From NCBI GenBank assembly GCA_044892505.1, contig CM097882.1, forward strand, positions 183,024,001-183,088,000: a stretch of 64,000 bases of DNA, read 5' to 3'. Position numbers and translations under genes: made by a program. Positions 24,807 to 51,408 of this stretch are shown piece after piece. A model generated the notes under the pieces. That model did no database searches and was not told the DNA's origin. It worked only from the letters and a program-made list of their open reading frames with translations. Within the stretch, counting starts at the first letter, position 1, and each line of letters starts with the position of its first letter. The stretch comes from Schmidtea nova. Lineage: Eukaryota.

Positions 24807-25112
24807 CAACTTCGTTTTATCGGAAAAATGTAAACGTAAAATCTGCAGAGAGGTTTAAAATGCTCGGGTCAATTAATTTAATAAAAAACAGAAAGGTTAT
24901 AATTAAATATAAATTATTGTATAAAAATTAAATAAACAACACGGCAGTGAACAAAAGTGAATTTAGAAATTAAAATGCATGCATAATTTGTCGGGACGAC
25001 AATTTTCGGAAACACGGGGAGGATTGATAAATATCAAAGATACAAAACGAAACATATTACTACTTTAAAAATGATAAAAATAACAGAGTTAAAACGATTA
25101 TTTATTTAGTAA

Positions 25113-26433: not shown

Positions 26434-26475
26434 GAGGCCAATGAGCCATATTGAATGACCTAGCTAGGCGTTATG

Positions 26476-26699
26476 GAGAGATTAAATTAAGGCCAAGAGA
26501 GCCATTTGAGAGATTAAATTAAGGCCAAGAGAGCCATTTGAGAGATTAAATTGAGGCCAATAGAGCCATTGGAGAGATTAAATTAAGGCCAAGAGAGCCA
26601 TTGGAGAGATTAAATTAAGGCCAAGAGAGCCATTTGAGAGATTAAATTGAGGCCAATAGAGCCATGTGAGATATAAAATTGAGGCCAGAAGAGCCATAG
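26476..26699 (+). repeat. Tandem array of a 32-bp unit, 6 near-perfect copies plus 1 degenerate
   Basis: GAGAGATTAAATT[A/G]AGGCCAA[G/T]AGAGCCATT[T/G]. Confidence 0.9.
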
Positions 26700-27308
26700 T
26701 GAATTATAGAGATATCCGGATAAATAGTAACAGGGGGAATATAGACCCATAGTATAATCGTCGACGAGATTTAGAGTAGTGCGCACCAGTAGTTAAGAGA
26801 ATGCGAGTAAAGCTGATTATGCAACCTTAAGTAAAGCATGCAAGAAGAATAGTAAAAATTTGGGCTGACCGGAGCAACCGGCAGAATGAGTAAAACGATT
26901 GCTAGCAGGGAATAATGAATAGAAATGATAAAATAATGATAAACGAGTCAGAAAGACTCAGGTAATTAGAGCGCTCGAGCGACCAATAATTTGGGAAACT
27001 GTGGGAAAAGTAATCGATTTGATAAAACATAGATAATTATTACGACGTAAATAGATAATTGTGACCAGTCTATAGATAATTTAAATAGACTAAAAATAAA
27101 GGGGAATCTGGGAATTGGGAAATAATGAAAACCCAGTAATAAGTAATCCCGAAAGAAAGGGAATAAAAGCGCGACGATAACAATAATGTATCGTTGAGGA
27201 CCTTTGTATTTTAGATATACAAATCAATCAAACCAACCAATCGAACAAGAAGAATCAGAACACGATAAGAGATAAGACAGGAAAATTGAGTATACAAAAG
27301 TAATCCCG

Positions 27309-32669: not shown

Positions 32670-32678
32670 GCCAAGAAT

Positions 32679-35600
32679 ATGAAAAAGAAATTCGAAAAAA
32701 TATTGGAAGAGTTAGAAAAAGAACAAGCAGGAACAGGAAACGCAAAGTCATCAATGAATCTGAGTGCCATAATAATGATGATGTTGATTTGGATGATTAG
32801 CACCGATAGCGCAACAGCATTCGAAGTGTTTGATTGCGACCAAATGAAGTTAGGAGAAAAGTATTCATTGAGAGGTACGGAGCAATGCAAAGATGCAACT
32901 CCAGTAGAGTTGCAAAAGATTAAAAAGGAACAATGGTACCACGTGTATCAAGAAGCAGAACTCATAAAGACAATGGTGAATGAATGTAAAGTGCAGAAGA
33001 CGAGATTCGCATTCTACTGCGGGAGAGGACATTATTCAGCAATTGTCATGCCAGGAACGGAAAGAGAACCAATCGTGTTACAAGGAGAAGACTGCGAAGC
33101 ACTGTTTAAACATGGAGAAGTAACAACAAGGGATAAAATCAAGATAAGAGGAAAGCCAGGAATGATGATGCAACAGACGTACTATGTAGCAGGACGGATT
33201 ACGGGAGGAGAAGGATATTGTCAAGGCGAAACCTACCCGATATTCGGAGTACCCGCAACCAACTTAGTGGTGATGGATACGTATATAGTCGAACTAAAAA
33301 GCTACGAAGCATTCTTCGAACCAACAACGGGAGAAATGAAAACGTTATCCATGTGTAAAATCGACAGGAGCATGTGTCAAACGGGAATGTCAACATTAGT
33401 GTACAAACCAAAGGTGAACGAATGTCAATTACAACTGCTACAAGGAGCACAGTTCGACGAAATCCAAGGAAAAACGTTTCAGGAAGAAGACGATGACGAC
33501 AAAGCTAGAGCAAAGCATCTCAAGGAAGCTTTGGAGAATAAAAGACAATTGAAACCGGATCATAGAGAAAAACGGATAGAGATGAGAGCCACACCAACAG
33601 TGTTGATAACCACAAATCAAGATGTGGGAATGAGATTCATAAAAGGGAAAGCAACCCTTAAGTGTAGTACAACGGTATATGAAACGAATTACCCAGGAAT
33701 ATATGTGTCAAAACAAGAAGTGCCAAATGCGAAACCCAAAATCGACACAATGGATATCAAACTACACTTGTATGTGAATAATAAAATGGATTTCCTATTC
33801 CATAGAGGACAAGCCTCATTACAAAAAGTGTATTACGATCTGATCAATAACGATTGTATACTGAATCGAGAAATACTAAAGACAAAATTGGCCGTAGCAA
33901 TTACGAATCCCGATAGCGCGATGCCATTATTACCACTGAGAGAAGGACATTTCGGAAGAGTGGTTGGAGAAGCAATGTATGTATACATCTGCGAAAAGAC
34001 ACACGCATCGCTAGCAGCAACAACACAGTTGAAACCTGGAACCTGTACAAATGAGTTAGAAATCGATTACAAAGGAAAAGTACGATACGTTCAACCGGTG
34101 ACGAGAATCATCAATCCACCAGGGTTTGAACCAAATCCATTCAACTGTAGTAATGCGTATGGACCGCTTTATCAGAAACCAGATGGTAAATGGGTTATGT
34201 TCCCAGGAAGATCCGAAGTGATAGCACCAAGAGAATTCGAGCTAATGCAGTTGTCAAAGGATAGGCAATTCAGCGACGTAGATGTCTCAAACAATGGAAT
34301 ATATAGTCCGAAAGATTTAGAAGCAGCAAGGCAGAATATATTATTCCCAGCAAGAAGAGAAGCATTACTGTCAAATATCGTAACGATAACGGGAGGAACG
34401 GATTATCGAGAAGGACCGAATTATGAACTATTGTTGTCACCAGCACATTTCAAGAAAGCCACAGAAAATATGATGAAAGCAATGTGGGGAAGATTTTTGA
34501 TATTCGGACAAATGATGGCCGGAATACTGGGGGTCATATTAATAATCCAAATCGTCAGAGTGATAATAACGCAAATGCTCGCATGTTTCGATATCTACAA
34601 GAGAGAAAAGAAAGTGAATTGGAAAATGGTAGTAGGGTTTTTACCATTCCTTGCGAAAACGATGGTGTTACACGGGCACTCAAAAGATATCCACCGAATA
34701 AAAAGACTCCTAAAGATATTAGCAAAAATGAAGGGAACAGATGAAGAAGTAGGACGAAAATTTAAAAAGATAATGAATGATGAACAAGCAAGACAACAGC
34801 TCAAGAGAGAAAGAAAAGGTTTATGGGAGAGGATGAAAGGATATAAAACCCAAAATGATTCGAGTGACGACGACGATGACGATGACGACTATAAGGGAGG
34901 ACAGGTGTATAAGAACCAAGCACCACAATACATCGAAAAGAATCCAGCCGACGCATGGAAATGTTACGCACCTCCACCAACAATGTATCAAGAACCACTA
35001 CAAGGAGGAAAAAATAGCACGATGCAAATGATGCCAATGACAAATGTATATCCCATGATACCAGAAGATTATAAAATGAGAAGATGTAGAAGCGTAGATC
35101 CACAAGGGGATACACACACGATCGCAGTAATGTCATCAAACACAGGTCCAGTATTAACCACGACAATAGAGATTAACGGAAGGGAAATCGAAGCAATGAT
35201 CGACACGGGAGCAAACATTTCCGCCATCGACATCAAATGGATACCACAAGAGCAAAGACGAGAAATAGAAAGGACAAACGTCCATGTAATTGCATGTAGC
35301 AAAGAAGTTGTAGAAGTAGCAGGAAGATGGTGGGTAAAAATACGCCATTTAAACACGGAAATCGATACGTACGTAGCTGTCATACCAGCATTAAGCGTAC
35401 CTTGCATTATCGGAACAGATTTGATGCCAGCACTATTTAAAGAGATTGTAATCGATCTTGGAACAATGAGACTAAAAGATCGCACCGGACAAATATGCGC
35501 AATAGAAGCCAAAGTGACAAGTTCAAAGCAAATGATAATACCCGCAAGAAAGGAAAAAATATGTTATGTAAAAATAGATCCAACAATCCAAGGGGATATG

Positions 35601-38600
35601 ATTTTCGAACCAAGTAAGAGATTCGAGAAAAGAAAAGCGTTGCCAATGGCAAGAGGACTAGTTAACATAAACGATGATGGAGAAATCCCAATAAACGTAG
35701 TAAACTTCGATGAAGAGGACAAAATAATATACGAAAACGAAAGATTAGGTAAATTAACCCCAATGATGGATATCGAACTACCAATAGAAGGAGCAGAGAA
35801 AGATAAAGAACCAACCTGGAATATTGATAGTGAATTATTAAACGAGGATCAAAAGAAGCAGTTAGAAAAACTTTTGATGGAGTATAAGGATATATTTGCA
35901 GCATCCGATTTGGATCTAGGAACATGTGATGTCACACTACATACAATACCATTAACAGATGAAACACCAATTGCATTAAGGCCGTACAAATTAGCGGAAG
36001 CACAGAAAGCAGTAGCAGAAGCAGAAGTGAAGAAAATGTTGGATGCAGAAGTAATCGAACCAAGTTGTTCACCCTGGCAATTTCCAGTGGTAATGGTAAA
36101 GAAAAAAGACGGAACACAGAGATTCTGCATAGACTATCGAAGATTGAATACAGTGACAAAAAGGGATACTTACCCATTACCAGACATTAATGAAATGCTA
36201 TTAACATTACAAGGAGCAGCATATTTTACGTCGTTAGATCTGAAAAGCGGATATTGGCAAATAAAAATGAAGGAAGAAGATAAGGTGAAAACTGCCTTTA
36301 CCATCGGGAGAGATTTATATCAATTTCGAAAAATGCCATTTGGATTAACGAACGCACCAGCATCATTTCAGAGATGCATGAATTTCGTCACCCGTGGAAT
36401 AAAGCAGTGTATGGTCTACATAGACGACTTATTAATTTATTCTAGCACGTTTGAACAACACATACAGGATATTCGAGATGTATTCGTTAGGCTTAGACAA
36501 TGGAAGTTAAAACTCAAGCCATCAAAATGCGATTGGGCAAAAGAAAAGGTTACATTTTTAGGACATATAGTGTCAGCAAAAGGAAAAGAACCGGATCCCA
36601 GAAATATCGACAAAGTAAAAGAATGCCCAGTACCAAAAACAATAACCCAAATACAAGAATTTCTCGGACTATGTGGATACTATAGAAAGTTTATAAAAGA
36701 TTACGCTGGAATCGCAAAGCCTATACAGGAACTGGTAAAGAAAGATGTATCATTCATATGGGGAGATGAACAACAAACAGCCTTTGAAACATTGAGAGAT
36801 AAACTGATAACCGCACCCATATTAGTACACCCAGACTTTAAGAAGCCATTCTTACTTGCAACGGATGCAAGCGGATATGCAGCAGGAGCCGTATTAGGAC
36901 AATACGACGACGAAGGAAAAGAACGGGTAATCGGATATTATAGCCGAACATTCAAAAAGCACGAGAAAAATTACTCAGTAACAGAACGGGAAGCATTAGC
37001 AATTATATTAGCTATTAAACACTTTAAATATTTACTATGGGGTCACATCATTTGCATAACAACAGATCACCAACCGCTTGTATGGTTAGGACAGCACAAG
37101 GAAACATCCAGTAGATTAATGCGATGGGCAATGCAGTTACAGGAGTACTCACCAGACATAAAATTTAAATCAGGAAAAGCGAATGCGAATGCAGATTGTA
37201 TGTCAAGACTGACATTTCCGGAATTAACCGATCCTGATGTACAACGAATTTGTGTGTTAATAGCGGAAGATTTAGATTTTAGTGAGTTAAAGAAAGATCA
37301 ACAGGAAGACAAAGAATTGGGACAGATCATAGAGTTCCTAACGTCTCGAAATATGGAGGTATTTAAGGATAATAAGGAATTAAAGGAACATATAGGAAAA
37401 TATCAACATCGCTACATAATAAATAAAGGATGGTTGTTAATACAAGACGGGGAAAAGAGATTGATGTGTTTACCGGAAAACAGAAGGAAAGAGATAATGA
37501 TCAAATACCATGATGGGAAATTGGGAGGTCATATGTCCGAGAAAAAGACCATAAATCGTATGAGACAAAAATATTATTGGCGAACAATGGAAGAAGATAT
37601 AAAGGAATGGATTAAAAATTGTCTAACTTGCGCAACCAGAAAGGATAGTGGGAAGAAATGGAAGAACCCGCTACAACCAATGCCGATACCAGCAGAGCCA
37701 ATGACAACTATAGCAATGGACGTAATAGGACCACTACCAGAAAGTTTAAACGGAAATATTTATATATTGGTAATAACGGATTATCTGACAAAATTCCCGG
37801 AAGCATTTGCCATGCAAGATCAAAAAGCAAAAACCGTAGCAAAAATTTTGGTAGAAGAAATATGTTGCAGATACGGAACTCCAAAACAAATACTCACAGA
37901 CCAAGGAACTAATTTTATGAGTGAGTTATTGAACGAGGTGACAAACTATTTCAGAATAGCAAAATTGAGAACTTCACCATATCACCCGCAAACGAATGGA
38001 CAAACAGAGAGATTCAACGGTACATTGATTAGAATGTTATCAAATTACGTCAGCAGACACCAAACTGATTGGGACGAATACATAAAATTATGTTTAATGG
38101 CATACCGAATGTCGATACATGCAGCAACAAAACTAAGCCCATTTCAACTTATGTATGGAAGAGAATGCAACATGCCCATAGATTTAGAGTATCAGCCACC
38201 ATTATCACAATATATGGAAGACGACGACTACGTAACCAAATTCAAAGAAAGAATGCAGGAAATATGGAAAACGGCAGAACTCAACATTAAATTTTATCAG
38301 GAAAGTTATAAGGACTTACACGACCAGAAGAAAAATGTTAAAGCGAACGATCTAAAACCAGGAGATTGGGTGATAATAGAAACTCCCGAAATAATACCAG
38401 GAACAGTTAAGAAACTCCAAAGACCTGGAAGAGGACCTTATGAAATTATATACAAAAAGGACAATAATGTCAAAGTTAAGCTAATAAATCGACCGTTAAT
38501 ACGACCCATATATGTAAACACCTGCAGATGTAAGAAGGTGCCTAAAACGATAACTACAACACCAGAAAATCGAATAATAACTAGATCACAAACAGCCAGG

Positions 38601-41600
38601 ATAAATATGCTCAGAGCTAATGTAACTGAAGACGACAAAGCAGAAATAAGGCAAAAAGAAATCAGAAACAAAGAGATCATATTGAAGGCGAGAGAAATAA
38701 TGGGAAGATGGCATGTTAGAGACGAAGCAGGCATATCAAGGGATATTAGACATATGATTAGCCGTTACGCACAAGGATTACCAACCGAACCAATTATTTC
38801 TGAATTATTGGAAAAAATCCCTGAAATACTCTTATTGAAAGATGTAGGAGGACAACCAGCCTTACATAATGCGATAGAGTGTAAAAACATTGAAAGAGCA
38901 AAAGAATTCCTAAAAATCGCAAAAGAAACAAACCAAAACTTGGACGTAGGGAATCGGGAACAAGAAACTCCATTAATGACAGCCGCAATCCACCAAGCAG
39001 ATAAAGAAATGATAGACCTATTGATAAAAGCTCATTTCAGTTGGACAGAACGAGATAGAGAGGACAAAACAGTGCTAAATCACGTAATATGGAGTTCTCA
39101 CCAACCAATGCTGAAATACATAATAGCTAACTCCACTTGGGAGATAGACGAACTAGTTAAAGGAGACATTATCAAAGAGGCAATCAAAATTGGTAAATGC
39201 AACACGATCCGTAAGTTAATCAAATGGAAACGACCAGAAGATGATACATGGGTCTTAGACATAAACGAAGTATACAGCGAAGGACAAAACGCACTGTTAA
39301 GATACCTTTTGAAATTTACTTGTGATCAGAAGACATTACTAACCTTATTAGACAGAGGAAACATAAACATCACAAAGAATGAAGAAGAATACAAATTCGA
39401 TAAAGAGAAGGAAGCCTTATTCAACAAGATTAGGAAATGGTGTGCGAAACCACTTGATAAACTAATAACATACAAAGACATAAACAATTTTAACGAGAAA
39501 TACCAGACGATAGTAAGCGAATATGAGGAATTAGTAAAAATCTTAAACCATCCCGAAAAATGCAAACAGGTTTTAGAGAAAAAAGAAAGAGAAAGTAACA
39601 AGAAACTCACACCACTCTTCAAAGCAGAAGCACCATACCAAGCTAGACTAGATGCGATACAAGAAAAAGCAAAAGAATTGTTACCGGAATTCGAGAATAG
39701 TAAACATGCACTGGAAATACTCGGCGCATTAGTTGAAAAAGTACACGCATACGCAAAAGGAACATACAATGGTAACGACATAGTAATAATAAAAAAGGAA
39801 ATGCCAGTAACATTCCTATTACCAAAAGACGGAATAATGCCCATACATAGAGCTCTACGAAATGGCAAAGATAGGAAAGTAATGGAAATTGCAAGAGTAA
39901 TGCTAAATTGCGGAAGCAATATGAATATGATAGACGAGAAAGGAGATACACTTATGGTATTTGCAGCAAGGGCCAAAACGAAAACAAAGGTATTAGAAGA
40001 ACTATACAAAGCAGGTGCAGGACTTACAGGAAAGACAGATAAAGATAATTCGATATTAGATGTAGCATTATTAACACACAATTGGGAAATGGTCAATTTC
40101 ATTAAAACCGTCCCAAATCAGGAAGAAATAGATCACCTAACTGATACGGTCAAGAAACCCAGTGTACTAGCAATGATGAACAACGTCGAACTAACAGAAT
40201 CAATACTTACGTGGATAAATCCTAATACTAACGAACCAGCATTCAGGATTAATAAATTTACAGAACATAACCAAAACTGGTGTATAAGAAGTGCCTTAAT
40301 AACGTATAAATGGCCAGAGATATTGAAGATGTTTATGGAAAGAAAGGATCTAAGAATCACAACCAGCCCGAAAGAAGAAAAATACACAGGCAAATGGAAA
40401 GAATTGATGAAGACATACATCAACAATTGGATCAAGGCCAAAAAGGAAATCTTGGAATATAAATCCACTAACAAAGTAATACCGGAGCAGGTAGAAACAC
40501 AAGAATTTGAGGCAAGCAATCTAACGACATTAGCATATGCAAAATTAATAGAAGAAATCAATGTCGAGGACGACATTTTCGACGAGCCAGGGGGAGATGA
40601 CAACACAGATAGTGACGACGATAACAACTCAGAAAATTCAAGCGATCACGAACCACCCGATAAAGAGGAAAACGAGAGAAAAGACAAGAAACGAGACAAG
40701 GAAGGAAAGAAAGGTGAAGACGAAAAACAAAGAGATGAAGAGAGAGAACAAGGAACAAACGACCAAGGAGATAAAAATGACACCCAAAGAACAGGTTATA
40801 AATCAACTATAAAACCATTCTTCAGACCAGAGTTACTATTATTAACAGTGATTTTAACGTTAATTAATCCAAGTCAAGGAATGACATGTGAAGAAAGGGC
40901 AATAATACAAATAAAAAACGCAAAAGGAATCGAACGAGTATGTTGGTCGAAAAAGGACAAAATCACGGAACAAAATAGCCCGATGGATTGCAGAATCTCA
41001 GAACACGAGCAAGAAATCATAGAGATCAACGACCTAGATCTAGATACCTGGTACAAAATATGCACCGTTAGGAAACAAAAGCATCCAAGATCACACAACA
41101 CAATCGCATGTGCAAAATACCAAACACCTAAAGCAGCCATGACAATACAACAGTCACCCAAAGGAGATTACATCCTCGGAAAATGTGGAAGAACAGAGAC
41201 ACAGGGAACAGAAAACAAAAAACCCCAGGCAATAGATAAGCAAACAACACCAACCCTACGAATTACAATAAAGAGGCCCGAAACAAGAATTGCCACAAAC
41301 GAAACCGAAAGAGTGTCTTACCAAATGGAAGTATTATGCTTAGCACTCATACTAATAATAATAAAACGATTAGAGGAAGGAATAGAAATTGAAACTATGA
41401 CAATAACAGAAGTAGAAGATACACAGAATACTAACATAAAATGTTGGGCGAGGAATAACGAGGAAATCGGCGTAAATGAAATAAGGAAAAGTCGAAAACC
41501 AACAACGAATAAAGTAATTAAAGTATCCAAAGTAAAAGCAGATAAGACGTACAAACTATGCCTACTAGAAAAAGAGACAAACAAGAAAGGTACCACAAAA

Positions 41601-44282
41601 TGTAAAACATTCCAACCTGGAGAAGTAATAAAGTTCAGAAGGAGAACGAGGAAGAGAAATAAACAAATCAAACAGAAAGTAAACATAACATTAGAAATAA
41701 AAGAGATAGAACCAAATGTGAAAGGAGTATGCTGGAGGAAGTACGAAAAAGAAACGAATGAAAGAAAGACACCACAATGTCGAACAAACACAGGAACAAC
41801 GACAATTCAAATAAAAGGTTTAGAAAGTAAACAAACCTACGAAATATGTTTAGTAAAGAAAAATGATCAGATAACGATAAACGACCTAGAATGCGGAATA
41901 TACACCACTTCATCCGGAACAAGAACTAAAACGTTAACACGAAAAAATAAAAGAAGACAACGAAACAAAGGGAAACCGAAGTACACCACTACCTTTAAAA
42001 ACAATAAACAACCGATAAGCCAAGAAGTTACGACAAAACCCGAGAAAAAGACATCAGCAACTCTGACATTATGGAAAATAGAGAATAAAACATTGGAGAT
42101 ATGTTGGATAATAGTCCAGAAACATATAAGAAGACAATCAAGAGAGTGCAGAAAAACAAATAAAGAAATCAAGATCGAAAAACTACAATTTAATAGCGAG
42201 TACGAAGTATGTACAATAGAAAAAACGGACGCACTAGGAAACCAACAAGAAAGATGCGAAACCTACTATACACCAGCGAACGCAACATCAAAAGGAATAA
42301 CAAGGAAACTCGAATTCAGGGAACTAAGCCAAACGAATGAACAAATGGACGTAGAAAAAACAATAACCGACCCTCAAGCAAAATGGACACCCGAAGAAGT
42401 TATCAAGGAAGTCAAAAGAAAGCAAGAGGAACGGGAACAATTAATGAGAAAACTAAAGGGACAATACGGAATAATGTTCAACCAAAGCGAATCTATACAA
42501 ACAGACGAGAATAAAGAAATTAAAGAACTAATTGGCTTAGGAATATTAACAGCGACCATACCAGTAATAATCGCGTTATCAGCTATATGGATACGCAAGA
42601 TAAACCCAAAGAAATCGGTAACCCAATGGACAAATAGAGACAGTACAAGCCATGGAGTGGAAATGCTAGAAGAAGAAGCACGAGAAGAACCAAAAAAGAA
42701 AGAAGCAAAAAGCGGAAAACTAGGAATAAACAACAAAGACAAGAAAATAAAAGAGATTAAAGGAGAAGAGAAAAAATATGAAAGGCGAACCAGAAGCCTA
42801 CCGCAGAGTTCAACATGGTTGAGTCTAACAATAATATTGACATTAATTAATAGGGAAGAAGCAATAAACCCACAGACAGGGATAAAAGTAATAAATGTCC
42901 AGGAAGTCGAGAAAATATGTTGGTATAGAGAAGATGAACCAATTGGAGAAAATAACCCACTAAAATGCATAATCAGAAAATCCGACCAGGATATCGTACG
43001 AATAGAAGAAATGGATGGAGGAACCATGCATCGGATATGCATAATAGAAAAGGAAAAGAAGTCGGGACTACCTAAGACAGTCGTATGCCAGAAATATGAA
43101 ACGCCTAGACTTGAATGGTATAGAGTAAAACCAACAAAGAAAGAAATCAAAAACACAATAGATCAACCAGCAACTCAGATAAGAAACACAACGGATAAAC
43201 CAGGAGAAGGAGAGAAAAGCACCAATAAAACGAGAGAAAGAATATCACCCCAACAGGAGTGCGTATGCATAGCATTAATAATAGCAATGTCCAAACGTAT
43301 CAATAAAGGAATAACAATAGAACAAATGGCCATGACAATAAGGAGAAAAGGCCGGAGTAGCAACAAAATATGCTGGGGATGGTACAACGAACAAAAAGAA
43401 TACCAAGTTCAGACAAGCGACGAATCACGAACAAACAAGGAAACCGAAATACAAGAAATACAAATGGACGGAGAAGGAAGTATATGTATATGGGAGAAAG
43501 GAATCCAAGAAGATCAACCCGGAATAGAAAAGTGCAAGACATTCCAAAAAGGAGAAATTCTGAAATTCGATGAAAAAGAATTAACCAAAACAGAAAGAAC
43601 TCTGACATTAACAGGACTTGATCAGACAGTGAAAGGAATATGTTGGACAAAACATAACCCAGAAGGAGAGGAAGGTAACCTAACCCACTGTAAAGAAACA
43701 GGGAATAAGGAAAAAGTCGAATTAAAGAAAATGGAAGTAAATAAGACATACGCGATATGTACCTTCACTAGAAAAGGTTCAGAAAAACCAGAATGCGGAT
43801 TATATCAGATCTCAGAGAAACTACAACAACAGATCAAACCATTAAACGTGGAAAACCGAACAAAAGAAAATAACGTCAAACAACTACTAAATCGCCATTG
43901 GTCTACACAAGAAGTAATGAACAAAGTCAAGAATCAAGTACAGAAGGAGAAGAAGCCAGAGGCTCAAACCCAAAATGAGATAAAAGCGAATCAGAATAAA
44001 ATCAAAGCAACAAACCGTGGAAAAACAGTAATAGGATTAATCAGTATAGGAATATTAATAGCATATGGGATAATGACGACAAGCATAATAGTATATTGGA
44101 GATACAGAAAGAGAAACAAAGCGACAGCCATACAATGGCCAGATATTAAAATTATGAAGCAAAGAATAGAAATACCAGAAGAGATACAGCAAGAATTCCA
44201 AAGAAGAACGAAAGGTAACGAATTCTGGAAACAAAGAGAAGACGAAGAACGATACGAGGAAAAGACGATAATGATGGTATAG
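32679..44282 (+). CDS. pol: Env-Pol-cargo polyprotein (3867 aa): signal peptide, chuvirus-like glycoprotein with TM, PR, RT, RNase H, integrase, ankyrin repeats, two FN3-like membrane modules
   Basis: MIDTGAN (35202), VYIDDLL (36417), ATDASG / NYSVTEREALA / TDHQPL, HDGKLGGH..CLTC, MDVIG..TDQGTNF..TERFNGTL, GPY. Ankyrin motifs GQPALHNA, ETPLMTA and GIMPIHRA. Confidence 0.95.
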   Translation: MKKKFEKILEELEKEQAGTGNAKSSMNLSAIIMMMLIWMISTDSATAFEVFDCDQMKLGEKYSLRGTEQCKDATPVELQKIKKEQWYHVYQEAELIKTMVNECKVQKTRFAFYCGRGHYSAIVMPGTEREPIVLQGEDCEALFKHGEVTTRDKIKIRGKPGMMMQQTYYVAGRITGGEGYCQGETYPIFGVPATNLVVMDTYIVELKSYEAFFEPTTGEMKTLSMCKIDRSMCQTGMSTLVYKPKVNECQLQLLQGAQFDEIQGKTFQEEDDDDKARAKHLKEALENKRQLKPDHREKRIEMRATPTVLITTNQDVGMRFIKGKATLKCSTTVYETNYPGIYVSKQEVPNAKPKIDTMDIKLHLYVNNKMDFLFHRGQASLQKVYYDLINNDCILNREILKTKLAVAITNPDSAMPLLPLREGHFGRVVGEAMYVYICEKTHASLAATTQLKPGTCTNELEIDYKGKVRYVQPVTRIINPPGFEPNPFNCSNAYGPLYQKPDGKWVMFPGRSEVIAPREFELMQLSKDRQFSDVDVSNNGIYSPKDLEAARQNILFPARREALLSNIVTITGGTDYREGPNYELLLSPAHFKKATENMMKAMWGRFLIFGQMMAGILGVILIIQIVRVIITQMLACFDIYKREKKVNWKMVVGFLPFLAKTMVLHGHSKDIHRIKRLLKILAKMKGTDEEVGRKFKKIMNDEQARQQLKRERKGLWERMKGYKTQNDSSDDDDDDDDYKGGQVYKNQAPQYIEKNPADAWKCYAPPPTMYQEPLQGGKNSTMQMMPMTNVYPMIPEDYKMRRCRSVDPQGDTHTIAVMSSNTGPVLTTTIEINGREIEAMIDTGANISAIDIKWIPQEQRREIERTNVHVIACSKEVVEVAGRWWVKIRHLNTEIDTYVAVIPALSVPCIIGTDLMPALFKEIVIDLGTMRLKDRTGQICAIEAKVTSSKQMIIPARKEKICYVKIDPTIQGDMIFEPSKRFEKRKALPMARGLVNINDDGEIPINVVNFDEEDKIIYENERLGKLTPMMDIELPIEGAEKDKEPTWNIDSELLNEDQKKQLEKLLMEYKDIFAASDLDLGTCDVTLHTIPLTDETPIALRPYKLAEAQKAVAEAEVKKMLDAEVIEPSCSPWQFPVVMVKKKDGTQRFCIDYRRLNTVTKRDTYPLPDINEMLLTLQGAAYFTSLDLKSGYWQIKMKEEDKVKTAFTIGRDLYQFRKMPFGLTNAPASFQRCMNFVTRGIKQCMVYIDDLLIYSSTFEQHIQDIRDVFVRLRQWKLKLKPSKCDWAKEKVTFLGHIVSAKGKEPDPRNIDKVKECPVPKTITQIQEFLGLCGYYRKFIKDYAGIAKPIQELVKKDVSFIWGDEQQTAFETLRDKLITAPILVHPDFKKPFLLATDASGYAAGAVLGQYDDEGKERVIGYYSRTFKKHEKNYSVTEREALAIILAIKHFKYLLWGHIICITTDHQPLVWLGQHKETSSRLMRWAMQLQEYSPDIKFKSGKANANADCMSRLTFPELTDPDVQRICVLIAEDLDFSELKKDQQEDKELGQIIEFLTSRNMEVFKDNKELKEHIGKYQHRYIINKGWLLIQDGEKRLMCLPENRRKEIMIKYHDGKLGGHMSEKKTINRMRQKYYWRTMEEDIKEWIKNCLTCATRKDSGKKWKNPLQPMPIPAEPMTTIAMDVIGPLPESLNGNIYILVITDYLTKFPEAFAMQDQKAKTVAKILVEEICCRYGTPKQILTDQGTNFMSELLNEVTNYFRIAKLRTSPYHPQTNGQTERFNGTLIRMLSNYVSRHQTDWDEYIKLCLMAYRMSIHAATKLSPFQLMYGRECNMPIDLEYQPPLSQYMEDDDYVTKFKERMQEIWKTAELNIKFYQESYKDLHDQKKNVKANDLKPGDWVIIETPEIIPGTVKKLQRPGRGPYEIIYKKDNNVKVKLINRPLIRPIYVNTCRCKKVPKTITTTPENRIITRSQTARINMLRANVTEDDKAEIRQKEIRNKEIILKAREIMGRWHVRDEAGISRDIRHMISRYAQGLPTEPIISELLEKIPEILLLKDVGGQPALHNAIECKNIERAKEFLKIAKETNQNLDVGNREQETPLMTAAIHQADKEMIDLLIKAHFSWTERDREDKTVLNHVIWSSHQPMLKYIIANSTWEIDELVKGDIIKEAIKIGKCNTIRKLIKWKRPEDDTWVLDINEVYSEGQNALLRYLLKFTCDQKTLLTLLDRGNINITKNEEEYKFDKEKEALFNKIRKWCAKPLDKLITYKDINNFNEKYQTIVSEYEELVKILNHPEKCKQVLEKKERESNKKLTPLFKAEAPYQARLDAIQEKAKELLPEFENSKHALEILGALVEKVHAYAKGTYNGNDIVIIKKEMPVTFLLPKDGIMPIHRALRNGKDRKVMEIARVMLNCGSNMNMIDEKGDTLMVFAARAKTKTKVLEELYKAGAGLTGKTDKDNSILDVALLTHNWEMVNFIKTVPNQEEIDHLTDTVKKPSVLAMMNNVELTESILTWINPNTNEPAFRINKFTEHNQNWCIRSALITYKWPEILKMFMERKDLRITTSPKEEKYTGKWKELMKTYINNWIKAKKEILEYKSTNKVIPEQVETQEFEASNLTTLAYAKLIEEINVEDDIFDEPGGDDNTDSDDDNNSENSSDHEPPDKEENERKDKKRDKEGKKGEDEKQRDEEREQGTNDQGDKNDTQRTGYKSTIKPFFRPELLLLTVILTLINPSQGMTCEERAIIQIKNAKGIERVCWSKKDKITEQNSPMDCRISEHEQEIIEINDLDLDTWYKICTVRKQKHPRSHNTIACAKYQTPKAAMTIQQSPKGDYILGKCGRTETQGTENKKPQAIDKQTTPTLRITIKRPETRIATNETERVSYQMEVLCLALILIIIKRLEEGIEIETMTITEVEDTQNTNIKCWARNNEEIGVNEIRKSRKPTTNKVIKVSKVKADKTYKLCLLEKETNKKGTTKCKTFQPGEVIKFRRRTRKRNKQIKQKVNITLEIKEIEPNVKGVCWRKYEKETNERKTPQCRTNTGTTTIQIKGLESKQTYEICLVKKNDQITINDLECGIYTTSSGTRTKTLTRKNKRRQRNKGKPKYTTTFKNNKQPISQEVTTKPEKKTSATLTLWKIENKTLEICWIIVQKHIRRQSRECRKTNKEIKIEKLQFNSEYEVCTIEKTDALGNQQERCETYYTPANATSKGITRKLEFRELSQTNEQMDVEKTITDPQAKWTPEEVIKEVKRKQEEREQLMRKLKGQYGIMFNQSESIQTDENKEIKELIGLGILTATIPVIIALSAIWIRKINPKKSVTQWTNRDSTSHGVEMLEEEAREEPKKKEAKSGKLGINNKDKKIKEIKGEEKKYERRTRSLPQSSTWLSLTIILTLINREEAINPQTGIKVINVQEVEKICWYREDEPIGENNPLKCIIRKSDQDIVRIEEMDGGTMHRICIIEKEKKSGLPKTVVCQKYETPRLEWYRVKPTKKEIKNTIDQPATQIRNTTDKPGEGEKSTNKTRERISPQQECVCIALIIAMSKRINKGITIEQMAMTIRRKGRSSNKICWGWYNEQKEYQVQTSDESRTNKETEIQEIQMDGEGSICIWEKGIQEDQPGIEKCKTFQKGEILKFDEKELTKTERTLTLTGLDQTVKGICWTKHNPEGEEGNLTHCKETGNKEKVELKKMEVNKTYAICTFTRKGSEKPECGLYQISEKLQQQIKPLNVENRTKENNVKQLLNRHWSTQEVMNKVKNQVQKEKKPEAQTQNEIKANQNKIKATNRGKTVIGLISIGILIAYGIMTTSIIVYWRYRKRNKATAIQWPDIKIMKQRIEIPEEIQQEFQRRTKGNEFWKQREDEERYEEKTIMMV

Positions 44283-44406
44283 GGGCGGATTATGACTGTA
44301 AATAATAGTGTAAATAACAAAGCATTACCGTAATAGTATGGGTATCGATATTATAAAAATTGTAAAAAGCTAGAAAAACAAAGTAAATGATGTATATAAT
44401 TTAGAA

Positions 44407-44763
44407 ATGACCGAACAGGACGAAACAACTGAAATAACTATGGCTATGAGATGGAAGGCACAATGTGATTTATTAGTACGAACAGTCAACTCATTACAGA
44501 ACCAATTAGCGGAAAGACAAATGTTATTATCAGAGAGTTATAACAATTGTTTCGAACAATTACACAGAATAGAGGAACAACAAAGAGTGATAACTGAACT
44601 CACCAGAGAAAATCAAACGATAAGCAACACCAATCAAAGACAAGCAATAGAAATAAACCATTTAACACGAGGAGAAAGAGAAGGATCCGAAGAAGGATGG
44701 ATGAGTTGGGTAATAAATAGATTAAACAGCGAAGCGGAACCAGATTCAACGAATGAGCCATAG
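44407..44763 (+). CDS. Small coiled-coil protein (118 aa)
   Basis: Heptad-rich LVRTVNSLQNQLAERQ...LHRIEEQQRVITELTRENQ; TTTAG|AA-ATG context. Confidence 0.65.
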   Translation: MTEQDETTEITMAMRWKAQCDLLVRTVNSLQNQLAERQMLLSESYNNCFEQLHRIEEQQRVITELTRENQTISNTNQRQAIEINHLTRGEREGSEEGWMSWVINRLNSEAEPDSTNEP

Positions 44764-44856
44764 ATAAATAAAGCGGAAAACTGTAAATATGTAAAAATAA
44801 AAACAAGAAAAATCAAAAAATGAATGACAAGTCGAATGTATATATTATTGTAGAAA

Positions 44857-46233
44857 ATGGACAGAGAAGAACGAATCATCGAAATTTTGAGATTAGAAAA
44901 CAGAAAATGGAGTAAGAGGCTCACATGCGGGAAGTGTAACAATTTATTACGAGAACCCAGACAAACGATATGTGGATGTAGAATATGTACAAAATGTATA
45001 CAAGAATTGGATGCAACAGGAATAACAACATGCCCAGAATGTAAAGAAGGAGGAATAGTGTTGGACGAAACCAGAACGGACAAAGCAACCCAAAGAGAAA
45101 TTATGAGCACCACAACGGAGTGCGTAAATACACCTTGTACATGGCAAGGACAAATAAGTAATCTAGAAAACCATATGGAAAAATGCGAAGAAAAGAGAGC
45201 CGAATGCGAGAAGTGCCAACAGACAATAATTCTAAAGAAGAGAGAACAACACAAGGAAGAATGTAAAGAAGAAGAAATCGCATGCGAGTATTGTGAAGCC
45301 CGAGAAACAAGGAGAAAAATCGAAGAGGAACACTTGAATATAACAGAGGAGAAAGTATGCAGACAATATGTAAGTAAATGTCCAAACAATTGCGAAATAA
45401 CAGAAGAAGTAAAGTTACATGAACATTGGAAAGTATGTACCGAAAGACCAAGAGAATGTCCATATAACAAACAGGGATGCAAAGAAAAGCGGACGCGGCA
45501 ATCAATGAAACAACACCTAGAAGAAGCAGCACTAACGCATGTGGAAATGTCAAACGAAACGACAAAAGGAACGGAACAGACAATCCAGAAATTAGAAAAA
45601 GAAGTAGAATCACATAAGATAATGATGAGTTTACTACTAGAAACAAGAGAGCAGTTTGAACTAACTCGCGAAAAAATGGAAAAGAAAATAATAGCCATAG
45701 AAGAATTAGGAAAAGGAATGAAAATACAATATAATCAATTAATACGAGAAATTGACGAAAGAAGGGACTTACCAATCGCACCTTACCTATGGAAAGTAAC
45801 AGATTTCAGAGACAAACTAGCAGAAGCCAGAAATATGACGAAAACAGCAGTAATAAGCCCACCATTTTATTTATGGAAAAACGGGGTTAAAATAAGATTG
45901 AAAGTATACCCAAATGGAGACGGAAGAGGACAAGGAACACACGTGTCAATATTCTTCTCACTATGTAAAGGAGAATACGATGACCTAATAGAATGGCCCT
46001 TGAAAGTAGGAGTCATTATAAGAATCAAAAGTATGGGAAAACCAGTAGAAAAGTTCTTTGAAACAGATAAACATACCAGTACGAGCGAAAAACCCACAAC
46101 AGAATGCGGACTAGCAGCAGGAGAACCAATGTTTATAAGGAAAGAAAACCTATGGGAGCGACTATATGCAGACACGCTATACATAGAGATGGAGAGGCAT
46201 GAGAAAACAGACAGAAAAGGATGGTTGGCGTAA
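44857..46233 (+). CDS. TRAF-family protein (RING, TRAF zinc fingers, coiled coil, MATH)
   Basis: RING CGKCNNLLREPRQTICGCRICTKC..CPEC; CVNTPCTWQGQISNLENHMEKC; MATH WKVTDF..ISPPFY..RLKVYPNGDGRGQGTHVSIFFSLCKGEYDDLIEWP. Confidence 0.95.
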   Translation: MDREERIIEILRLENRKWSKRLTCGKCNNLLREPRQTICGCRICTKCIQELDATGITTCPECKEGGIVLDETRTDKATQREIMSTTTECVNTPCTWQGQISNLENHMEKCEEKRAECEKCQQTIILKKREQHKEECKEEEIACEYCEARETRRKIEEEHLNITEEKVCRQYVSKCPNNCEITEEVKLHEHWKVCTERPRECPYNKQGCKEKRTRQSMKQHLEEAALTHVEMSNETTKGTEQTIQKLEKEVESHKIMMSLLLETREQFELTREKMEKKIIAIEELGKGMKIQYNQLIREIDERRDLPIAPYLWKVTDFRDKLAEARNMTKTAVISPPFYLWKNGVKIRLKVYPNGDGRGQGTHVSIFFSLCKGEYDDLIEWPLKVGVIIRIKSMGKPVEKFFETDKHTSTSEKPTTECGLAAGEPMFIRKENLWERLYADTLYIEMERHEKTDRKGWLA

Positions 46234-46346
46234 TGAAGGAAGTGACCATGTAAATAAAATGTATAGAAACAATATAAATTAACGAATAATCAAAAACAAT
46301 AAAAATAAAAAATGATTAAATATTCTTTTTATCTGTAATTATAGAA

Positions 46347-47408
46347 ATGGGAAATATAGAAGTAACCTTACAAGAAGTAACAGTACATCAAGACGAAATG
46401 ATCAGAAATCACATGGAGCGGATTGGGATATGGATTCATGCCTATTATCGAAAACAGGAGGAATTGGAAAGACAAACCCAAGCACTAAGAGAAGCCGAGA
46501 AAACGAATCAAAGAAGTCGAGAAAAAATAGAAGAAGTCTACAAACTACTAAGACAACAAAACGAATACTACAAAGAGATGATGAAAGAGCGACGAGAGGA
46601 TAGGGATAGACAACAAATAAAAACAGACCATAAGATTCAGTCAATCACAGAACAATCAAGATATTGGAAGAAAGAGGCAAAAGACTCTTATAAGGAAGCA
46701 AGGGAGATAATAGAACGAACAGCGTACAGCGATGATTGGAAACTGTTTAAAGAGATCGATGAATTAAAAGAGGAATTAGGGCAAAAGATCAGTCAAGAAG
46801 CGTCAAATAAAGTATGGAGTAAGAAAAGACAACAATTTATCAGAGAACAAGCCAAGAAAATAAAAGAATTAACTTATCAAGTACAAAGAATGGGAGAAGA
46901 TTTAGCCAATCAAGAACAATTAAAAGGTATGCTGACCGGAATGTGGAATCACAAAGAAGAAAACATGAAAAGAGATATAAATGGATATCAAGGAGTGATC
47001 ACCCAGAAGAAAATAGAATTAAAAAGAACTAAAGAAAGACTGGAAGAAACGAGGCAGAGTTATGAAGAGAACATAACAAATTTGACAAAAGAAAACGAAG
47101 AACTGAGAAAGAAGTTGGCAGAAAAACCAACGCCAATAAAAGAAACAAGTATCACAGCAGCAGTGACCGAAATGATGGAGAAAGAAGAGAGAGAGAAAAG
47201 ATTAATGGAACTAGAAAGACAAATTGAAACCCTTACAGAACAAGCAAACTATTTGGAATACTTGTTAGACGAAGAGATCCAAATATCCCACACATACCGA
47301 GAAGAAGTCGAAATGTGGAGGAGCACGGTAATATGGATGCCACTCCCCATAAATCAGGTGGAACCTCAAGACGAAGGTTTTCACGAACCCAACGAAACCC
47401 TTGTATAA
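46347..47408 (+). CDS. Long coiled-coil protein (353 aa)
   Basis: E/K/Q/R-rich heptads throughout; no other motif recognised; TTATAG|AA-ATG context. Confidence 0.75.
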   Translation: MGNIEVTLQEVTVHQDEMIRNHMERIGIWIHAYYRKQEELERQTQALREAEKTNQRSREKIEEVYKLLRQQNEYYKEMMKERREDRDRQQIKTDHKIQSITEQSRYWKKEAKDSYKEAREIIERTAYSDDWKLFKEIDELKEELGQKISQEASNKVWSKKRQQFIREQAKKIKELTYQVQRMGEDLANQEQLKGMLTGMWNHKEENMKRDINGYQGVITQKKIELKRTKERLEETRQSYEENITNLTKENEELRKKLAEKPTPIKETSITAAVTEMMEKEEREKRLMELERQIETLTEQANYLEYLLDEEIQISHTYREEVEMWRSTVIWMPLPINQVEPQDEGFHEPNETLV

Positions 47409-47483
47409 ATGTGCGGAAACCAAGTGTAAATAAATTATGTAAAATAAAAAGTGTCAAGCTGTATTGACCGATGTATAAAAGAG

Positions 47484-48053
47484 ATGAGAAAGCTCGCAAT
47501 AACAACACTCCTATGGTTAACAACCATTACCCTACAGAGAGAAGATCTACAACTAACCGAAACCCAATTACGAGTGCTACCCGACAAAATCTACCAGAAA
47601 GTAGACATACTAATCGAAGAAGTACTTAGAGAAATCAACGAATTCCGACAGAAATACCCTCACAATCAAGATCATCAAATCCAACAAATCTTCGATAACC
47701 AACAACTGAAACTAGAAGAAACCCGAAAAATTCTGAAAGAAGGTAGAGAACCCATAAAAAGCCTATCCCAAGCTGAAATAGAATATCAAGAGAAATGGAT
47801 CATAGCAATCATCATAATCCTAGCAGTCAGCACAACTATCATCGCAATCACAATCCTAATTGCCTCATATAGAATAAAAATCCTAAAACAAAAGCAGAAA
47901 ATCTACAACCAAACCTCCAGACGAGATAACCGATCTCAAAGACAAATAAGGAGCCATCTCAATCACATTCAAACCCACTACGAGCTACAAATGATCAACG
48001 AGAGGACCCGAACCCAACCCCAAGCGAGCCAGACGATCGAACAAATTGTATAA
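47484..48053 (+). CDS. Putative type-I membrane protein (signal peptide, helical ectodomain, TM, basic tail)
   Basis: The track start 47451 is GTG; ATG 47484 gives MRKLAITTLLWLTTITLQ. TM WIIAIIIILAVSTTIIAITILIASY followed by RIKILKQKQK. Confidence 0.7.
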   Translation: MRKLAITTLLWLTTITLQREDLQLTETQLRVLPDKIYQKVDILIEEVLREINEFRQKYPHNQDHQIQQIFDNQQLKLEETRKILKEGREPIKSLSQAEIEYQEKWIIAIIIILAVSTTIIAITILIASYRIKILKQKQKIYNQTSRRDNRSQRQIRSHLNHIQTHYELQMINERTRTQPQASQTIEQIV

Positions 48054-48226
48054 ATATTATGATAACTTATCGAACTATTGTGACAAATCATTACATTTTG
48101 ACTATTTAGTGACAAACCTTATGATATGTATAAATTCGATCACCCTATGTGATTTTTTCTTTGCATGTATAACTTTATAAAACTTTTTATGGATGATGAA
48201 AATAAGTAGTTATGTATAATTAATTG

Positions 48227-48256
48227 CGGGACGCAATTTTAGGGGTCCCCGGGTGA
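48227..48256 (+). promoter_or_regulatory. Atypical polypurine-tract region before the 3' LTR
   Basis: CGGGACGCAATTTTAGGGGTCCCCGGGTGA|TGTTGGG: the usual Gypsy CGGGAC..AATTTT plus G-tract layout, interrupted by a palindrome. Confidence 0.5.
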
Positions 48257-51200
48257 TGTTGGGCCCGCCAAATCACCTAAAAAACACAAGGAACGAACAA
48301 AAGCATGAAACAATAAAGAAATAATAAAAATAAAAATAGCAAGAAAAACAAATTAAAAATAACAATAAAACGACAAATAATAATTAATAAATTTTCAGTA
48401 AAAGGAAATTTTGAAATAAACCGGTAAACAACCGCAAAGGGGGGCCTGAAATAAGAAAAAATAGAATTAAATAAAATAATAGTGCAAATAATTAATTAAT
48501 TACTTGGAAAATCAGGACCACCCAGCGAGAAACCGGAAAAGGAAACAAAATAATGTTTAGATTAGATTAAAATAATAAAAATACTTTGAAGGACGGTCTG
48601 ATCCTGATTGGTCAATCCAACCAGACGGATCAGTATAAATACCGATCCAAAAATCACAGACTTAGACGTTTACTTTTCACTCACAATCAAGACTAAACTT
48701 TGATTTGAGTAAATTTTTGAAAAAACCGAATTTCATGCAAGGAACCACACATTCAAGTACGGAAGTAATTTTTTATGTTATCTTATATGATGTACCCATG
48801 ATTTTTATTTAATTAAAATCTTATATGTAAACGTTATTTGATCTTATTTTTCCTTTTTGATATTTTAATGCATATAGTTATACTTCCTATGCTGCTCACG
48901 CGGCGAGGGAGTCCGAGTCGTCGTTGTGGGGCCTCACGGTCTCACATGGCGGTTCAACCTTTTTATTGTTTTGGTTTTCATATTTAATTTGGTAGTTGAA
49001 ATAATTAAATTACATCATTCGAATTTAACTAGATATTTATCAGCGAGATTAGAGAATTTTAATGCTTATTTAGTCGAGTAAAATTTTCAGTCACGAAATA
49101 TCGATAATGCGAATACGTCCAGACAGTTTTCTGGCAATAAGTAAAAAAGTCATCATTTGGTTGTACAGGGGACGTAGCGCAGCGGGCGGTAGAGAAGGTC
49201 TAAGGAGATACCAAGAGGGGGTAAAGTACCCGATAGGTGTCAGGTACCCGAGACAAATGGGTTGACACGCTGAGGTTAAATTTGAGGACGAGAGAGCAGG
49301 TATAGCATGACAAGTTATAAAAACTTTCCAAGTAAATCGATCAAACTGATGAATTTCAATTGAGGTCAAGGTACAGGATATCGCAACTGCATGACAGAGA
49401 TTAGTAAGACTGAAAATCATAAATTCTAAAAATACTTTAAATTCCAGTCTAATAAAACTAAAAATCTGTAATTCTAAAAATACTTTTATGCCGATCGCTG
49501 TACATAGCGCGGTAGCTCAAAATAATCTTATCCTGATCGTCGTACATGGCGCAGGGAAACAAATATCTTATCCGACCGTGGTATATCGCGGTGATGGTTT
49601 AAAAATGAGATGGTATTAACTAAAAGGATTGAGATTAAATAGAATTTACATTTAACTCTTTATTAAATAAAATGACAGATGCTGACATCGTTGAACGAAA
49701 GATTAACGCGGATTCGGAACTCAGGAAAGGAGGACAGGGCGAATGAATGGGCAAATCAGCTCAAGGAGTTGCCCCAGCCAATTCTGCGGACCATTAATGC
49801 CCAAGCATACAAGTGGCGGCAAGGGTTTGGTCGAAAGTGCCCGTTTTCCATCTGGGACGGAGGAAACGATATAATACTCTATCGAGGAGGACCGAACTGG
49901 CCGATTTCTCAAAGGCCGTACTCAAACAAATTTGGCCGACTTGTCGTACTGATCAAGGACACAGATGGACGGACAAGCCGTGTAATTTATTGGGGGCATA
50001 TCCCTCGTCGGGAACTATGCCAACTAGGTCTACACGAATTCCTACCGCGAAAACCGTTCGGCAAGGAGTGCCAGAAGGGACAACCCTCATTCTCTTGGGC
50101 TCGTCTTCGTCAGAAACCGATTAACAGCGAATTGCATAGTTTGTTTCGGAGATGAAAACTGATTAACAAATGTTGAAATTGTGTTAAAATATTAGAGTTC
50201 ATTAGTGCATTTTTGTTTTGTTGTTTTGAGTTTTGGTTTTGTGTTTTTAATAGTTCGTATTGTAACCTAATAATCCTATAATCAAATTTTAATTTTTCAC
50301 ATAATTTAATCATAAAGTAAATATCCTAAATAAATTATAGAATGACCACCGATTTGATACAGAGAGAATTGGAAAAGATGTGGCGGATCCGGAGAGCCCA
50401 GGACAAAGAATTGGGTCTCCTCAAGGCACAATTGATCAAAGCAGAGGCACAGATCGCATACTTGCGCAAAAGCTGGTTTGCTCCGGCCCGAATGAAGGAG
50501 CAAATCAGTAAAACCGAGCGCGCCCAACAGACTGCAGCCGATTACCAAATGGAATGGGAGGCCACAAGGATAGAACTCCGAAAATGCCTCCATTCCGTAA
50601 CTGCCTCATATATTGAGAAAGAGCTCAGAGAGCAAATCCGTCCGGTTACGTACCAAGCGTGGACATCAGAAAAGAAGACGGTAAATTCGATTGGCACGGA
50701 TGTCGCCGATCTAATCGAAAGTCGGAATGAGACAGCTCCTGCAGCAAATGCAACCACCTCATCGGCGAATGCGCACCAGAAACGCAAGCGCATTGGGCAG
50801 AAACGGCGAAGACAGAGGAAATTATTTGCCCAGCAATTACAAAGCCAAGTAGATGGTCTACATCAGATGACCGAGGAGGCATTATTGACGGAGATTTTCC
50901 CTCCGGCTGGAGTTTTTTTCGGAATTGATGAAAACTTAAATAAAATTTTCGTGTTAATTTAAAATTGTTATCGTTCTTTTAAATGGATTTAATTAACTTT
51001 ACAAATGATTAGATAAAGATAGAATAAAAGTATAAACTCATTTTACAAAATACCTAATAGAGATAAATAAATAATTAAACGAGCATTTGTTGAAATACTT
51101 CTTGCAGAATGAGAGAGGTTAAAGATAAATTTACTGAAAGATATTGCGGAACACCCAAATAGATGATTAAAGCATAAGTCCTTCTAACGGCAGCGATGAA

Positions 51201-51408
51201 CCCGTAAACATAAATGGGGAGTAGTACTAGCGATAGTGCTCACCTGCCCATCATTGTTTAACCACCCTGCGCATCACCAACTTGGTTATACAGGGAAATA
51301 ATCAAGGGCGCTTGAGTGTAGAATTGCAATTTTGTGCATGATCATGGATGAGGGAATCCCTAGTCATTGTTAGAGCATTTTTCATCTAACCCCTCCATGA
51401 ACCCAGCA
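48257..51408 (+). repeat. 3' LTR (3152 bp)
   Basis: Colinear copy of 21631-24782, followed by TSD ATAG. Confidence 0.97.

Follow-up and report, generated by a model that had tools for sequence, protein, structure and literature searches.

We analysed a 64,000-nt stretch of the Schmidtea nova genome (assembly GCA_044892505.1, contig CM097882.1, positions 183,024,001 to 183,088,000, forward strand), here called the window, which contains a giant Ty3/gypsy long terminal repeat (LTR) element that by its architecture is of the planarian Burro type as described in PMC6431247. Behind integrase and a run of ankyrin repeats, the polyprotein of this element continues into a tail of seven Cys-containing repeats arranged in two paralogous units, each with signal-like segments and a predicted transmembrane (TM) anchor. 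The repeats are under purifying selection, and the same place behind integrase is occupied, in all the relatives that we examined from this genome, by a putative signal peptide and an ectodomain, be it one unit, one anchored domain or one secreted domain. We label these families A–F, the window element belonging to family A.

A preliminary description of this stretch, made from its letters alone, had proposed seven Cys repeats forming two tandem receptor-like proteins that are clear paralogues, and the repeat count and the paralogy are both upheld. The pattern CW-x(34-42)-C-x(10-17)-C matches seven times in the tail and nowhere else in both open reading frames (ORFs) of the polyprotein, compared with a mean of 0.02 and a maximum of 2 matches in 5000 shuffles, and leave-one-out profiles recovered the left-out repeat in seven of seven cases (E 3.5e-11 to 1.1e-14). 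Unit 1 aligns to unit 2 with a local score of 489, the maximum of 200 shuffles being 109; the paralogous pairs are R1/R5, R2/R6 and R3/R7, and R4 has no counterpart in unit 2. The repeat tree, with 1 of its 10 inner branches starred, is too poorly supported to fix the order of duplication. The full motif ascribed earlier to each repeat is less regular than proposed, with [VI]CW in 6/7, the middle Cys in 5/7, Y.[IVL]C in 5/7 and C..[YF].[TP] in 5/7. All peptides quoted in that description lie in one stop-free frame (32670–44282), and the protein extends beyond the end then assigned to it, running to 44279 with a cytoplasmic-type tail.

A survey of the host genome gave 1592 candidate copies, of which 150 were scored. 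Using 28 of the 30 copies fetched (L003 and L016 were dropped for unrelated flanks), the ratio of nonsynonymous to synonymous substitution rates (dN/dS), obtained at the domain level from pairwise counts on related, top-scoring and non-independent copies, is 0.10–0.22 in the repeats (R7 being partly covered), 0.22–0.56 in the linkers and 0.05 in TM1; a further 19 copies plus the window copy served for the end of the tail. The repeat Cys are invariant among the 28 copies, and indels are in frame. Selection on the repeats is purifying; diversifying selection among copies, which had been suggested as a test, is not seen at the domain level.

The proposal of a fibronectin type III (FN3)-like fold stands with a refinement, the loss of strand A, and has behind it four kinds of evidence that are weak to moderate and in part independent of one another: AlphaFold2 (AF2) modelling with structure search, Pfam, profile search and a protein language model. 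The AF2 model of R3, built from a 32-row alignment and searched against 48,161 solved chains, has six strands, a predicted local distance difference test (pLDDT) score of 78.7 and a predicted template modelling (pTM) score of 0.66. Judged by title and general knowledge, FN3 domains or scaffolds make up 48 of the 50 listed matches to R3 (Z 6.5–7.8, root-mean-square deviation 2.3–3.8 Å), the other two being one chain of the BOS complex, and the R3 and R4 models align to FN3 chains over 69–77 residues (Z 6.5–7.9). The matches start near residue 14 of FN10, and strand A therefore appears to be missing; it is also absent when R3 and R4 are modelled in tandem with upstream sequence included (mean pLDDT 49, with R2 and H2 not resolved). 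Pfam fn3 scores 15.7 bits (E 0.018) against a gathering threshold of 25, fn3_2 (E 0.0019) is also under its cut-off, and 3 of 31 single repeats match fn3, at E 0.058 or worse. The repeat profile has 25 matches among 1.84e9 proteins, with fn3 in 10 of the 11 scanned, and language-model neighbours are FN3 at 0.88, which we take as a lead only. Searching PDB sequences with the repeat profile gave nothing under E 0.5 (contactin-4 at 0.56), a viral structure library gave phage and Ig-like proteins at a best E of 8.6e-3 with no retroelement, and word-indexed homologue searches with the tail and unit 1, covering near lengths only, gave no match.

We therefore describe the repeats as FN3-like rather than canonical FN3, strand A being absent and the scores lying under the Pfam fn3 cut-off. 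The fold evidence is moderate because no match reaches Z 8, below which a match in this search tool may reflect only a common arrangement, and because the best Foldseek E for R3 is 0.069; the AlphaFold and Foldseek check recommended earlier yielded a predicted sandwich for R3 and no confident fold for R2. In most repeats strand G is succeeded by a strand-like segment, which may fold back in cis, serve the next domain or be exchanged between molecules. In the last case, which we hold tentatively, strand-A-less domains, each with such an orphan segment behind it, may assemble by strand exchange; dimer prediction for R1 with its extension scored 0.02, a value that we weigh neither for nor against it. 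As to origin, the closest sequence look-alikes are multi-FN3 proteins with an RG[IV]CW strand, whose scores are weak sums over several domains, and we do not claim a bacterial source. A search of the genome for a host donor gene with Fn3_ELFN gave one broken match (E 0.45), generic host FN3 genes not being searched.

Membrane topology was read from hydropathy scales, charge and the –3/–1 rule of signal peptidase, and the C-terminal ends from the PDZ ligand classes (Table 1). Two type I membrane units would be the simplest topology: hydropathy and charge fit such a layout for H1, TM1 and TM2, while the poor site of H3 and the unexplained H2 and H4 leave room for others. The preliminary description had assigned one signal to each unit and cited VLCLALILIIIKR and CVCIALIIAMSKR only as proof of paralogy; these are second hydrophobic, signal-like segments inside the units, which makes four such segments instead of two and a topology less clean than claimed. 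H1–H4 are shorter or weaker in hydropathy than TM1 and TM2. In family B, H1 and H2 align with a score of 54, against 13–30 for unrelated hydrophobic segments compared with H1–H4; H2 and H4 stand at the same distance before CW as H1 and H3 (20–22 residues) and have an 11-residue core, KR is kept after H2 and H4 of family A and H2 of family B, and in the tandem model H2 is a helix with pLDDT under 50. Their resemblance to the leading signals and the same spacing before CW suggest that the duplicated module was probably a signal plus a domain.

Table 1. Features of the element and its surface-protein tail, in window positions
Feature	Position	Strand	Remarks
Giant Burro-like Ty3/gypsy LTR element (family A)	21631..51408	+	29.8 kb
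Gag-side frame	27276..32669	+	CCHC zinc knuckle; TAA end interrupts the polyprotein in this copy
Env-to-tail frame	32670..44282	+	Env (PF24664), protease, reverse transcriptase, RNase H, integrase, ankyrin repeats, surface-protein tail
Charged low-complexity linker, ankyrin region to tail	40575..40820	+	dN/dS 0.56
H1, internal signal-peptide-like	40833..40880	+	small residues at –3/–1; position and pattern kept in families B and C
Repeat R1	40881..41135	+	dN/dS 0.11
H2, likely paralogue of H1	41331..41369	+	11-residue hydrophobic core then KR; no clear signal-peptidase site
Repeat R2	41385..41627	+	lacks middle Cys; no confident fold
Repeat R3	41670..41918	+	predicted six-stranded FN3-type sandwich, strands B–G
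Repeat R4	42042..42281	+	fold predicted as R3, pLDDT about 60–70
Stalk of unit 1	42282..42524	+	
TM1 (predicted)	42528..42593	+	22 uncharged residues, basic C-terminal flank (+4); dN/dS 0.05
Charged inter-unit loop, probably cytosolic	42594..42815	+	dN/dS 0.51
H3, signal-like, unit 2, paralogue of H1	42816..42863	+	poor cleavage site, with Glu at –3
Repeat R5, paralogue of R1	42864..43112	+	
H4, paralogue of H2	43260..43298	+	
Repeat R6, paralogue of R2	43314..43559	+	
Repeat R7, paralogue of R3	43587..43820	+	
TM2 (predicted)	44028..44099	+	25 uncharged residues, basic C-terminal flank (+5); dN/dS 0.85
Cytoplasmic-type tail	44100..44282	+	ends M-x-V, PDZ class II-like; dN/dS 0.20
TRAF-like separate ORF	44857..46233	+	directly downstream

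In this slot, family B (two elements; reverse transcriptase (RT) 92% identical) has a single unit of four repeats, and family C (two elements and 20 short loci) has a signal, one repeat and a stop in 22/22 copies, with dN/dS 0.38, the middle Cys in 10/22 and an F- or G-strand Cys lost in 4/22. In the family C stretches fetched there were matches to protease and ankyrin, but gag, env, RT and integrase gave none. Families D and E (13–16 kb; RT about 47–48% identical) and one copy of family F end in the order integrase, signal, ectodomain, TM and tail; env was seen in B, D and E and was not examined in F. The anchored tails have a PDZ-ligand-like pattern (S/T-x-V or hydrophobic-x-hydrophobic with a variable –1), as a sequence pattern only. 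In family A, Met stands at –2 and Val or Ile comes last in 19/19 copies; family B ends IVV in 2/2 copies, E ends STLV or STQV in 19/19 (copy L070, which stops before the TM segment, was left out of this count), D ends ETFV in 2/2 and F ends STLC, the –1 residue varying in A and E. Families E and F carry the motif L.P.T.Y..C...C..I.T. The repeat profile of families A, B and C gives only a weak match to the E domain (E 6e-4) and none to those of D and F; what the families share is therefore the slot and its layout rather than a demonstrable ancestor of all the ectodomains. An obligate TRAF partner for the tail was rejected on disagreeing presence patterns, family C having TRAF without a membrane tail and the D and E stretches fetched giving no TRAF match.

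Other features of these families deserve record. Family C is a high-copy LTR element that also has TRAF, BIR and two further signal-bearing ORFs (L038–L040, L049–L050). The family D ectodomain (L032:740–1954, L035:1310–2536) has ~300 residues, is beta-rich and is unrelated to the repeats by profile. In families D and E an ORF follows pol (L032:2351–3799, L064:4582–7275), and its family D protein shows by eye, with no Pfam match, a pattern like the DEDDh motif of 3'–5' exonucleases.

The tail is likely made inside the polyprotein and released by host signal peptidase. An AG stands shortly before the ATG in 15 of 17 inspected starts of free-standing accessory ORFs from families A–E, and none of H1–H4 has this context, which points to production within the polyprotein. 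A splice-acceptor model for H1–H4 was rejected, the contexts being unconserved among copies and the AG–ATG pattern absent. A search for copies altered right after the guessed donor site gave one point variant; L016, considered as a spliced copy, is rearranged instead; and in four contig sets of unknown kind no GT-AG joint leading to the tail was seen, a result without bearing on expression. At the first two accessory ORFs (44374–44860), a TGTATA[TC]A motif and an AG lie just before the ATG.

It had been proposed that the tail proteins complement the fusogen, and this holds to the extent that none of the env-bearing families examined has the slot empty; it does not hold for the evolution of the two parts, which is uncoupled, and env-less family C keeps the domain. 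The Env ectodomain of family A (32820–34470) is 97–98% identical to that of family B (L042/L046), with a dS of 0.37, whereas synonymous sites are saturated in RT, integrase and most of the remaining regions, and identity in the repeats is 28–61%. The simplest reading would be a recent exchange of the env ectodomain between the two families that did not include the tail. Together with family C, this suggests that the tail is not a locked partner of the fusogen. Herpesvirus gB needs separate attachment proteins, as general background. Flatworm GAG-ENV-POL envelopes are assigned to the HSV/gB class (HSV, herpes simplex virus) in the text available of PMC13524379, and the planarian env row in its supplement has, by eye, motifs in common with the window Env.

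In the reading that we favour, and hold about as likely as not, the tail would be an additional surface glycoprotein of adhesin-like kind, loosely coupled to the fusogen, with a part in attachment or in spread between cells. H1 would start translocation after the cytosolic enzymes and ankyrins, TM1 would stop it and H3 restart it, and H2 and H4, short remnants of a duplicated module made of a signal and a domain, would pass through. TM2 would anchor unit 2, whose cytosolic PDZ-ligand-like end would sort it to cell contacts, and the anchored glycoprotein would attach particles or producer cells to neighbours so that the separate fusogen can act. Two sequons at equal places in families A and B agree with such a topology. 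Several observations weigh against this reading. Models of usable confidence were obtained for only two of the seven repeats, R2 being unfolded, and the fold evidence has the limits in Z and Foldseek E given above. Over 11 residues H2 is as hydrophobic as a TM segment and could stop translocation, inverting R2–R4. Sequon numbers are not above chance; TM2 is weakly constrained (dN/dS 0.85); and the repeat profile misses families D and F. Many class III fusogens bind receptors alone. Near-identical Env proteins with divergent tails indicate no co-evolution with the fusogen, and family C, without env, retains a secreted single domain. More tentatively still, the gag-env-pol elements of flatworms might be retroviruses that carry envelope proteins of two kinds: a gB-class fusogen midway along the polyprotein and, in a fixed slot behind integrase, a modular FN3 adhesin that grew from one domain to seven, is exchanged independently of the fusogen and is PDZ-sorted to junctions for cell-to-cell spread.

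Some of the same evidence could fit a host-directed decoy or receptor mimic, possible though in our view rather unlikely, whose domains would act on the host cell or its signals (as a ligand sink, or an adhesion or survival signal) like the Bcl-2-like, TRAF, BIR and ankyrin cargo, with no entry role. The constrained secreted version in family C and the independent swapping of the fusogen agree with it, as do cytokine-receptor ectodomains, built of FN3 folds, among the listed structure matches and other cargo aimed at signalling and death pathways (domains in the window; PMC6431247, section 7). Yet the tail shares its frame with Env and Pol instead of forming a free-standing accessory ORF, is kept even in the small families D and E, and does not co-occur in its membrane form with TRAF (present without the tail in C, not seen in the fetched stretches of D and E), and the diversifying selection expected in an arms race is not seen. 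How many products the tail yields is a question that we scored separately, since either an adhesin or a decoy function is compatible with it. Cleavage at KR after H2 and H4, or a mixed topology, could give secreted R1 and R5 together with anchored R2–R4–TM1 and R6–R7–TM2. We judge this unlikely: the likeness of H2 and H4 to H1 and H3, their equal spacing, the retained KR and the viability of signal–R1–stop as a product in family C favour it, but no –3/–1 site follows H2 or H4, only H2 of family A has its own Met, an acceptor-plus-ATG context is absent from all, and in general a second signal reached from the lumen is not cleavable by signal peptidase in the usual orientation.

Superinfection exclusion, in which producer cells would be guarded from re-entry by surface proteins that cover the receptor or inhibit Env there, is known for retroviral Env and poxvirus A56/K2. 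Putative cell-surface type I proteins made together with Env would suit it; near-identical Env proteins beside very different tails in families A and B argue against a specific Env inhibitor, and we hold this explanation improbable. That the tail is a non-functional captured sequence, open only through an A-rich frame, is largely refuted by the selection data and hardly credible: stop codons are few on the A-rich strand and the linkers and TM2 are weakly constrained, but the dN/dS of the repeats, their invariant Cys and in-frame indels, and a slot kept across families at about 47–48% RT identity all speak against it.

The element has LTRs of 3152 bp each (21631–24782 and 48257–51408) with 1 mismatch between them, TG...CA termini, a 4-bp target duplication (ATAG) and a primer-binding-like site after the 5' LTR; the single mismatch, these termini and the target duplication point to a young insertion. 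Its order is gag-env-pol, with env in frame between gag and protease, RT, RNase H and integrase. The frame is uninterrupted over at least 5600 aa in 33 of the 150 scored copies, the window copy having one in-frame stop. The Burro features present are the ~30-kb size, multi-kb LTRs, one giant polyprotein and ankyrin and MATH/TRAF cargo; BIR and BCL2-like domains have no Pfam match among the window proteins scanned, the gag end being BCL2-like by eye and BIR occurring in family C. The leader (25964–26729) has arrays of 29- and 32-bp tandem repeats. Each LTR (23050–24336, 49679–50962) contains two ORFs of 158 and 206 aa without clear Pfam family, the longer having relatives in families B and E, and an accessory ORF at 47484–48053 has a signal-like start, a helical body, a TM-like segment and a homologue in family B. 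Elsewhere, the window holds a second, small intact gypsy element on the minus strand (53363–58392; identical 305-bp LTRs) and a 424-aa frame (12650–13924) with a weak DUF4371 match, presumably a remnant of a hAT-type transposase. On genome contig C2, dense and diverse MATH-domain matches at about 405–455 Mb likely mark an expanded host TRAF/MATH gene array.

Burro elements and the env-in-the-middle order are already known. Burro/GYPSM1, as set out in section 7 of PMC6431247, shares with the window element the ~30-kb length, multi-kb LTRs, single giant polyprotein, env between gag and pol, ankyrin, MATH/TRAF and leader tandem repeats; neither an FN3 domain nor a post-integrase unit of signal, ectodomain and TM is mentioned in that section, by whose account no more than half of the Burro polyprotein is covered by known domains. 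The window element differs in having no BIR match and in its downstream TRAF ORF. TM segments in Burro are reportedly perhaps marked in Grohme 2018. GAG-ENV-POL errantiviruses with HSV/gB-type env, from flatworms, nematodes and bryozoans, have the same gene order (PMC13524379); no second membrane protein after integrase was found in the text available of that paper, whose main text does not mention fibronectin, attachment or accessory and whose seven supplements do not mention fibronectin.

Among cellular proteins, the FN3 adhesion proteins (fibronectin, tenascin, sDscam, NCAM2, L1CAM, LAR) resemble the tail in the predicted strands B–G, the Leu...Tyr motif of the E–F loop and the type I layout; the tail repeats differ in the absence of strand A from the models, 8–23% identity, up to two extra Cys pairs and their encoding in a retroelement polyprotein. 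LRR-FN3 proteins (FLRT, LRRN, LRFN, ELFN; LRR, leucine-rich repeat) are characterized by a pair of Cys on strands F and G (Y.[IV]C ... C..[FY].T), which the tail shares along with a membrane anchor and PDZ-type ends. Unlike them, the tail has no LRR or Ig domain (Pfam scans for an LRR array before the FN3-like repeats matched no LRR family), and Fn3_ELFN matches only at E 0.38–0.79. Herpesvirus gB with gD/gH-gL and paramyxovirus F with H/HN/G show a similar division between fusogen and separate surface protein, but those pairs are specific and encoded by separate genes, whereas the window proteins share a polyprotein and are evolutionarily uncoupled. The planarian secretory cell nidovirus, as far as the text available of PMC6211748 goes, also has a single giant polyprotein, ankyrins and matrix-type modules, with release of its structural region by signal peptidase and furin predicted and a role in shedding or transmission proposed; it differs in its fibronectin type II modules, which are unrelated to FN3, and in being an RNA virus that does not use reverse transcription. 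Neither literature searches nor the text available of PMC6431247, PMC13524379, PMC8532177, PMC11410931 and PMC6211748 turned up a membrane protein of FN3-like type behind integrase; Grohme 2018 and Repbase notes, which were not covered, may mark TM segments or domains.

The tail gives work on the half of Burro polyproteins that lacks annotation a starting point open to test, and it appears to be a host-type fold that was taken up, duplicated and reshaped within a transposon. As a decoy, it would extend to the outside of the cell the cargo already known from the element, which is aimed at cell death and signalling. Retroviruses and errantiviruses have been described with one envelope gene, and a conserved second surface protein of adhesion-like kind, drawn from the one polyprotein, would, if true, change the view of how these abundant planarian-type elements move from cell to cell.

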